Assembly: GCA_947594925.1 (NCBI GenBank)
Contig: CANQEJ010000004.1
Location: 1-50,083 of the forward strand
Source of the DNA: an uncultured Bacilli bacterium
GTDB taxonomy: Bacteria > Bacillota_I > Bacilli_A > RF39 > UBA660
Direction: 5' to 3'
Length of the DNA stretch: 50,083 bases
The notes beneath the pieces were generated by a model. That model ran no database searches and was not told the origin of the DNA. It saw only the letters and a program-made list of their open reading frames with translations. The position numbers and the translations under genes are program-made. Shown in pieces: positions 50,041 to 50,083 of this stretch (positions are counted from its first letter, which is position 1; each line of letters opens with the position of its first letter).

Positions 50041-50083
50041 ATGTCAACCAAAAACTTTCTGCTTTACAACAAACCGGGGGGGG
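50041..50083 (+). repeat. 43-bp dispersed repeat, copy 2 (truncated in the G tract at the sequence end)
   Basis: Identical to 9525-9567. Confidence 0.95.

Follow-up and report, generated by a model that had tools for sequence, protein, structure and literature searches.

What is the poly-G sequence in which this contig stops, and does a gene stand behind it? The window, that is, the whole stretch of DNA analysed here, is the entire contig C4 (50,083 nt) of a genome bin of 58 contigs and 1,040,717 bp with 27.8% G+C, and it translates well under code 11. An earlier note on this DNA had described the window end as a second copy of positions 9525-9567, identical in 43 of 43 bases, preceded by unrelated sequence, lying after pgsA and breaking off inside a G run. 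Direct comparison of 50041-50083 with 9525-9567 reproduced the identity (43/43 bases), and the flanks of the two copies do differ. The gene upstream of the terminal copy, ending at 49994, matches PF01066, and the contig ends after the eighth G, where the internal copy has nine G residues and then TATAAT. With up to 3 mismatches, the 43-mer matches the window at these two places only; the chance expectation is 0.00 (100 dinucleotide-preserving shuffles of the window). The features concerned are as follows.

49404..49994, + strand: pgsA-type CDP-alcohol phosphatidyltransferase gene (PF01066, E 2.5e-32), outside the module
50041..50083, + strand: truncated class-1 promoter module, with upstream box, -35-like TTTACA (50063-50068), and G run (50076-50083) cut by the contig end
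9525..9574, + strand: complete class-1 promoter, with upstream box, TTTACA (9547-9552), G9 (9560-9568), TATAAT (9569-9574), and a 16-nt spacer

A promoter scan of 9525..9574 gave TTTACA-16 nt-TATAAT a score of 11/12. The name pgsA is a plausible one, because the PF01066 match is accompanied by an HTH_25 gene and a DivIVA-domain gene, which lie upstream.

Is this a promoter module dispersed around the chromosome, each copy heading a paralog of the gene at 9610..11319, as had been proposed? The 43-mer was followed up in the full assembly. A 39-mer with up to 3 mismatches occurs 32 times in the genome, and its reversed control does not occur. The 23-nt core (up to 3 substitutions) followed by a G run has 41 matches, which represent 38 distinct loci; three of the 41 are the same locus found twice through exact 77-nt contig overlaps (C48/C8, C49/C15, and C32/C34). 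Thus, the module is dispersed. A contig end truncates 13 of these core matches (12 after the eighth G and one after the ninth), and the other 28 are complete. The expected assembly break at the repeat is therefore found at 13 contig ends, all inside the G run. All 28 copies with assembled downstream DNA share the -10 box, leader, and start codon after the G run, and a paralog ORF begins there. In the window, this part of the internal locus reads as follows.

9575..9609, + strand: conserved 35-nt leader, with ribosome-binding site AGGAAGG (9593-9599) and a start-stop ATGTAA (9605-9610)
9610..11319, + strand: family paralog of 569 aa, with a membrane helix (residues 2-36), an Ig-like sandwich (46-189), a variable middle, and a C-type-lectin-like (DUF6273-like) head

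In the genome, the leader motif was found 28 times and always (28/28) runs into a family ORF starting with MKE(R/N)KRK, so the proposed link between module and paralog holds wherever the downstream DNA is assembled. These ORFs are complete in 21 cases (498-587 aa) and run off the contig in seven. A tblastn search with the 9610-11319 protein found 58 matching pieces on 35 of the 58 contigs, including orphan gene pieces at contig starts; the promoters left without a gene might have their partners among these. On their downstream side, the paralogs are followed by genes with no relation to one another, and no conserved operon partner was found. In the JGI metagenome contigs, there is no exact match to the core plus G7.

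The G run fills the gap between TTTACA and TATAAT in the same layout in all 28 complete copies, and it is the sole part of the module that varies in length. Seven G residues are present in three copies, eight in 11, and nine in 14, these being homopolymer lengths from a short-read assembly, which can be wrong; the 60 nt after the run are 98-99% identical. The spacers of the complete copies are accordingly 13-16 nt in length. Runs of at least seven G or C residues number 49 in the genome versus 1.8 expected from base composition (about 27-fold), and nearly all of them lie just before a -10 box. Moreover, G8-G9 immediately precedes the -10 box in four further promoters whose upstream sequence is unrelated.

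C11:10515-10523, strand not given: further G-run promoter, heading a family gene
C17:16153-16161, strand not given: further G-run promoter, heading a family gene
C7:26320-26328, strand not given: further G-run promoter
C22:6773-6780, strand not given: further G-run promoter

The assembly itself breaks at the run. Twelve contigs stop exactly after the eighth G, and eight contigs start exactly 46 nt before the core, which defines a 77-mer ending in G8 and including locus-specific sequence. A branch of the assembly graph after G8 would fit the presence of two run lengths in the reads, the next base being G or T, if the assembler works as supposed. Logan contigs of the same DNA break at 50046-50060 and reveal neither a mixture of G lengths nor any sequence beyond the end of C4.

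A phase or antigenic variation system seems to be the best reading of these sequences. I give a probability of roughly 75% to the view that the modules at about 38 loci, together with slippage of their poly-G spacer, allow each lectin-like surface-protein gene to be switched independently and at random. The module would consist of an optional terminator hairpin, an upstream box, the -35-like TTTACA, a poly-G spacer, TATAAT, the 35-nt leader, and a signal-anchor start. Near-identical modules at scattered loci in the roughly 1-Mb genome of this uncultured rabbit-gut Bacilli bacterium would each drive their own member of a family of more than 40 proteins that carry a membrane anchor and a variable lectin-like head. 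By replication slippage, the G run would change in length and with it the -35/-10 spacing, and thereby each gene would be switched or dimmed independently and randomly. Since the genes would switch in this manner, a clonal population would display changing combinations of surface proteins. The hairpin may shield the switch from read-through of the upstream gene, and the biological role may be adhesion, or escape from host immunity or phages.

The main weakness of this mechanism is the spacer length. In addition to the 13-16 nt given above, spacers of 19 nt were found for class 2, 19-21 nt in the related genome G005, and 18-19 nt in G004, and none of these distributions is centred on 17 nt. Either most copies would be OFF, or the 17-nt rule would not simply apply to G-run spacers; a simple spacing model may be incomplete. 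The misfit of both the 13-16-nt and the 19-21-nt spacers to a simple 17-nt optimum would agree with a plainly duplicated family with an ordinary constitutive promoter, the G run being a conserved passenger, or a fixed structural or regulator-binding element, with no switching. This explanation also accommodates a relative, G007, which has the family without the G run, and the observation from the contigs alone that length variation at a single locus was not seen. It does not account for the run being the only length-variable part of the module, for the 27-fold excess of G/C runs, nearly all of which lie just before a -10 box, for otherwise unrelated promoters sharing nothing more than the run and the -10 box, or for the 12 contigs that break after the eighth G. 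I regard it as unlikely, and it is the strongest of the alternatives to random switching by slippage.

Is the G-run promoter common in related genomes? I counted runs of at least seven G residues followed directly by TATAAT in other members of the genus. There are 20 in G005, 22 in G006, nine in G004, one in G002, and none in G007, which is closed in a single contig. The sister species have the same layout of G run and TATAAT with their own -35 context. In G005, 13 of the 20 sites head a family ORF, four have no readable ORF at a contig end, and three have no family match; in G004, four of the nine head a family ORF. Among 60 other genera of the taxonomic family, such sites were found in three genomes only, with 1-4 copies each. 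The protein family is distributed more widely, with 16-46 matches in each of the nine other genomes of the genus and with weaker matches in 14 of 15 other genera of the taxonomic family. G007 has 24 family matches and no G7-TATAAT site; thus, the family does not need the switch.

How far does the module extend? For the 12 copies with 200 nt of upstream and 450 nt of downstream sequence, the mean pairwise nucleotide identity was calculated relative to the ATG. It is 0.2-0.3 before -100, 0.9 from about -85, 0.98-0.99 from -40 to +20, and 0.55-0.75 within the gene. The sharp left boundary at ATGTCAA suggested in the earlier note is only partly right, as the similarity continues leftward in many copies, which share a T run and CATG(CAAAAATG) to the left of ATGTCAA. 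For the copy at the window end, the similarity to other modules reaches back to about 49995 and includes the following structure.

49997..50024, + strand: hairpin (49997-50017) and T run, both the pgsA terminator and a part of the extended module (8-9 bp stem, 5-nt loop; fold -8.3 kcal/mol, z -2.97)

This hairpin type is found at four loci of the genome, and all four have a module within the next 90 nt. Several hairpin types recur almost only beside modules, and the "pgsA terminator" is therefore a part of the extended repeat. Among the 31 copies with 100 nt of upstream sequence, 28 have a hairpin with a T-rich tail 36-63 nt before the core, versus 11.6% of shuffled sequences. The internal copy of the window is one of the three exceptions; its upstream neighbours are on the other strand.

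The association of particular hairpin types with the module in subsets of loci might also be seen if module and gene together were a mobile cassette of a transposon-like or recombination-driven kind, the repeat marking the ends of the element instead of forming a regulatory switch. The dispersal of the loci among unrelated genes without a common downstream partner and the occurrence of the pgsA-adjacent copy in only one of eight relatives (see below) agree with this. Inspection of the flanks of the copies revealed no transposase, integrase, or terminal inverted repeat, and mobility would explain the spread of the module, not the poly-G run or its position. The cassette explanation is quite improbable as a replacement for the switch, with which mobility would be compatible.

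The leader has a feature of its own. The start-stop ATGTAA before the gene (9605-9612 with the overlap) is well spaced from the ribosome-binding site, and the real ATG overlaps with its stop codon (ATGTAATG). The leader contains another ATGTAA at 9583-9588, and the leader of the sister species has no start-stop ORF. A cis-regulatory RNA was considered and rejected, since an Rfam search of 9300-9800 gave nothing near the gathering score. A second repeat of about 45 nt with a G6 run was noticed just upstream of three modules (C23, C26, and C41) and at several contig ends, and it may be another cause of assembly breaks. Its G6 sites on contigs of G000 are as follows.

C11:49-54, strand not given: G6 run of the second repeat
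C23:15265-15270, strand not given: G6 run of the second repeat
C26:13613-13618, strand not given: G6 run of the second repeat
C41:10674-10679, strand not given: G6 run of the second repeat

Which gene lies beyond the last G of the window? No contig of the assembly overlaps the end of C4 by at least 21 nt, and the gene behind 50083 thus lies outside the assembly. Orthologues of pgsA with 81-95% identity are present in eight of the nine other genomes of the genus. In G005, a hairpin and a G9 promoter lie behind the orthologue, and a family paralog begins there, of which the N-terminus is present before that contig also ends. The module after pgsA in G005 is of the type of its own species. In the other seven relatives with pgsA, no family gene follows it, so the synteny support comes from one relative in eight. 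As a separate observation, the distance from pgsA to a contig end is only 320-620 nt in four of the eight (G001:C48, G003:C29, G004:C30, and G005:C51), and among these four ends a family module is visible in G005 only. The C4 end lies in a high-copy repeat (summed contig depth about 3000 in the repeat versus about 38 in the flank, which is not a copy number), as a chimeric join of pgsA to the repeat would, and such a misassembly is rejected as very improbable because independent k=31 Logan contigs from four runs (two samples) bridge the unique flank into the repeat, covering 49131-50046 and 50017-50060 without differences, and because G005 has the same order of pgsA, hairpin, promoter, and paralog. 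The public runs concerned are rabbit gut metagenomes, with two samples of one study containing at least half of the words of the stretch; no RNA run was found to contain it.

What are the proteins behind the modules? No family protein match was found in Pfam or NCBIfam at default thresholds. PF19789 (DUF6273) remained below its gathering score (best 16 bits, E 0.011, versus a cut-off of 23.5); two of 21 members match it at E up to 10, and one distant homologue carries it. An AlphaFold model built from 21 paralogs (mean pLDDT 81.5) has the helix at 2-36, the beta sandwich at 46-189, and a larger C-terminal domain. Residues 190-569 of the model were superimposed on residues 32-303 of 9qa6, the T. 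ramosa IgAse, with Z 13.9 and rmsd 3.3 over 195 residues, the next structural match having Z 6.7; Foldseek gave 9qa6 an E of 2e-5 and a probability of 1.00. Thus, the head domain is predicted to have the fold of a solved DUF6273 domain. The N-terminal domain of the T. ramosa IgA peptidase has been called an enlarged C-type-lectin-like domain (PMC12237041) and DUF6273 (PMC12402451), and phage DUF6273 domains (tentaclins) are described as receptor binders diversified by DGRs (PMC10743442).

The mean pairwise identities of the 21 paralogs by region are as follows.

Anchor: 0.77
Ig-like domain: 0.61
Middle part: 0.11
Lectin-like core: 0.44-0.66
Patch 506-545, the hypervariable patch of the 9610..11319 protein: 0.25
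Last (adjoining C-terminal) strand: 0.73

The similarities of the N- and C-domains are uncorrelated (Spearman -0.05 over 210 non-independent pairs); N- and C-domain identities are, for example, 98% and 60% in one pair and 53% and 70% in another. This suggests an exchange between paralogs.

The helix and the fold would place the family proteins at the cell surface. The genome has a gene for a class A penicillin-binding protein, and a cell wall is therefore probable. The N-terminal hydrophobic region lacks cysteine in 13 of the 21 aligned paralogs, seven have ...LFSC..., possibly an atypical lipobox, and one has neither pattern; a lipoprotein signal peptide is not a feature of the family as a whole. 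A type IV pilin reading is unsupported: in this 89%-complete genome, no prepilin peptidase (PF01478) was matched and no assembly ATPase (PF00437) was above the cut-off, the Pilin_N matches are weak (13 of 21 members, best E 1.3e-4), and there is no G/A cleavage motif before the hydrophobic stretch. At least 2513 metagenomic homologues at E <=0.001 were found among 7999 scored candidates. The sole informative name among homologues is 'hypothetical protein [Bacilli bacterium]', and the family is without annotation.

A diversity-generating retroelement (DGR) core is present elsewhere in the genome, at C16:11772-13209 (L063:3773-5210), where a bAvd-like gene (117 aa) is followed by a reverse transcriptase gene (372 aa). 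The 463-aa protein encoded upstream of the bAvd-like gene has no Pfam match and is unrelated to the family, and no TR/VR pair was found near this reverse transcriptase or genome-wide. On these grounds, diversification of the family by a DGR was rejected. In the window, the paralog is followed at 11596-15147 by two genes for membrane proteins of 320 and 857 aa; these have weak NCBIfam similarity to mycoplasma ICE conjugal-transfer proteins (MMCAP2_0566, E 0.009; Mbov_0396, E 2.4e-4), far below the cut-offs.

Phase variation by simple repeats is textbook knowledge for pathogens such as Neisseria, Campylobacter, Treponema, and the mycoplasmas; few descriptions of it are known from uncultured commensal gut Bacilli. 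The proposed mechanism and the organisation belong to the known kind exemplified by porA, tpr, vlp, and vlhA. With 38 modules, and with 28 of 28 resolved leaders heading a paralog, the organisation resembles that of SSR-gated multigene families of the vlhA/vlp type. What is particular here is the number of uniform modules in 1 Mb, the attached hairpin, the lectin-like heads, and the host lineage.

In Neisseria meningitidis porA and opc, a homopolymer of G or C lies between -35 and -10, and its slippage changes the spacing and thereby the strength of the promoter of a surface-protein gene. The present module similarly has its homopolymer between a recognisable -35 and -10 (TTTACA, a 16-nt spacer with G9, and TATAAT). 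porA and opc are single genes, whereas here one homogenised module is repeated over the genome of a low-GC Gram-positive-type commensal. The vlp paralogs of Mycoplasma hyorhinis have a poly-A tract in the spacer between -35 and -10. As in the present family, they combine variable bodies with a highly conserved promoter, leader, and signal sequence. In contrast to the dispersed poly-G modules, the vlp genes form one cluster of 3-7 genes and encode lipoproteins with tandem-repeat bodies.

According to PMC7864442, Treponema pallidum tpr subfamily II, tprL, and tp0126 have poly-G tracts of 7-11 in or near the promoter, the length of which sets transcription. Several surface-protein paralogs with a poly-G run each are thus a common trait; the treponemal genes differ in being a handful, in encoding unrelated outer-membrane beta-barrels, and in the varying position of the run relative to the promoter boxes. 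For Mycoplasma gallisepticum vlhA, PMC6258824 describes a (GAA)n repeat some 40 nt before the transcript start with highly conserved flanks, few genes being thought ON at a time. Both vlhA and the present family, on this account, are large, dispersed surface-protein families in a small genome with a promoter and a simple repeat for each gene. In vlhA, the repeat is outside the spacer and the products are lipoproteins, unlike here, where most of the aligned paralogs lack the signal-region cysteine. As for the head, the T. ramosa IgAse domain and the phage tentaclins point to a common fold with a variable patch near the C-terminal end of the lectin-like domain. Unlike the DGR-diversified tentaclins, the diversity here resides in about 40 germline paralogs with no retroelement, and Pfam DUF6273 stays below threshold. 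Searches of the literature on poly-G, phase variation, multigene families, and metagenome-assembled gut Bacilli gave nothing on this lineage or family, and those on DUF6273 gave no description of such a family, subscription journals being outside their scope.

More tentatively, and with less than even confidence, the locus set may be pictured as some 40 stored lectin-like heads behind terminator-insulated poly-G switches, with gene conversion keeping the module uniform within a species and shuffling the N- and C-domains, so as to form a stochastic combinatorial surface code. If this is true, stored paralogs would reach the same end that DGR retroelements reach through mutation of this fold. 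With about 40 genes at about 1.6 kb each, approximately 6% of the 1-Mb genome would be devoted to one switchable family, and strong fluctuating selection on the cell surface would therefore be implied, be it by host IgA, mucus glycans, or phages. The modules account for many contig breaks in this bin and in those of the relatives; therefore, short-read bins of this group will under-report the family.

Some other G runs of the genome are also worth describing. Of the C7 and C22 G-run promoters, one heads a 255-aa protein and the other a 102-aa protein of unknown family. A family paralog with an ordinary TTGACA-type promoter contains a G10 run in its reading frame (C13:23670-23679) and is frameshifted at this place; this run is a candidate site of translational phase variation. 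At C49:2995-3003 (G9) and C3:40830-40836 (G7), the run lies 5-10 nt before a start codon, at the position that a ribosome-binding site would take, and one of these two runs precedes a protein with a CxxxCxxC motif.
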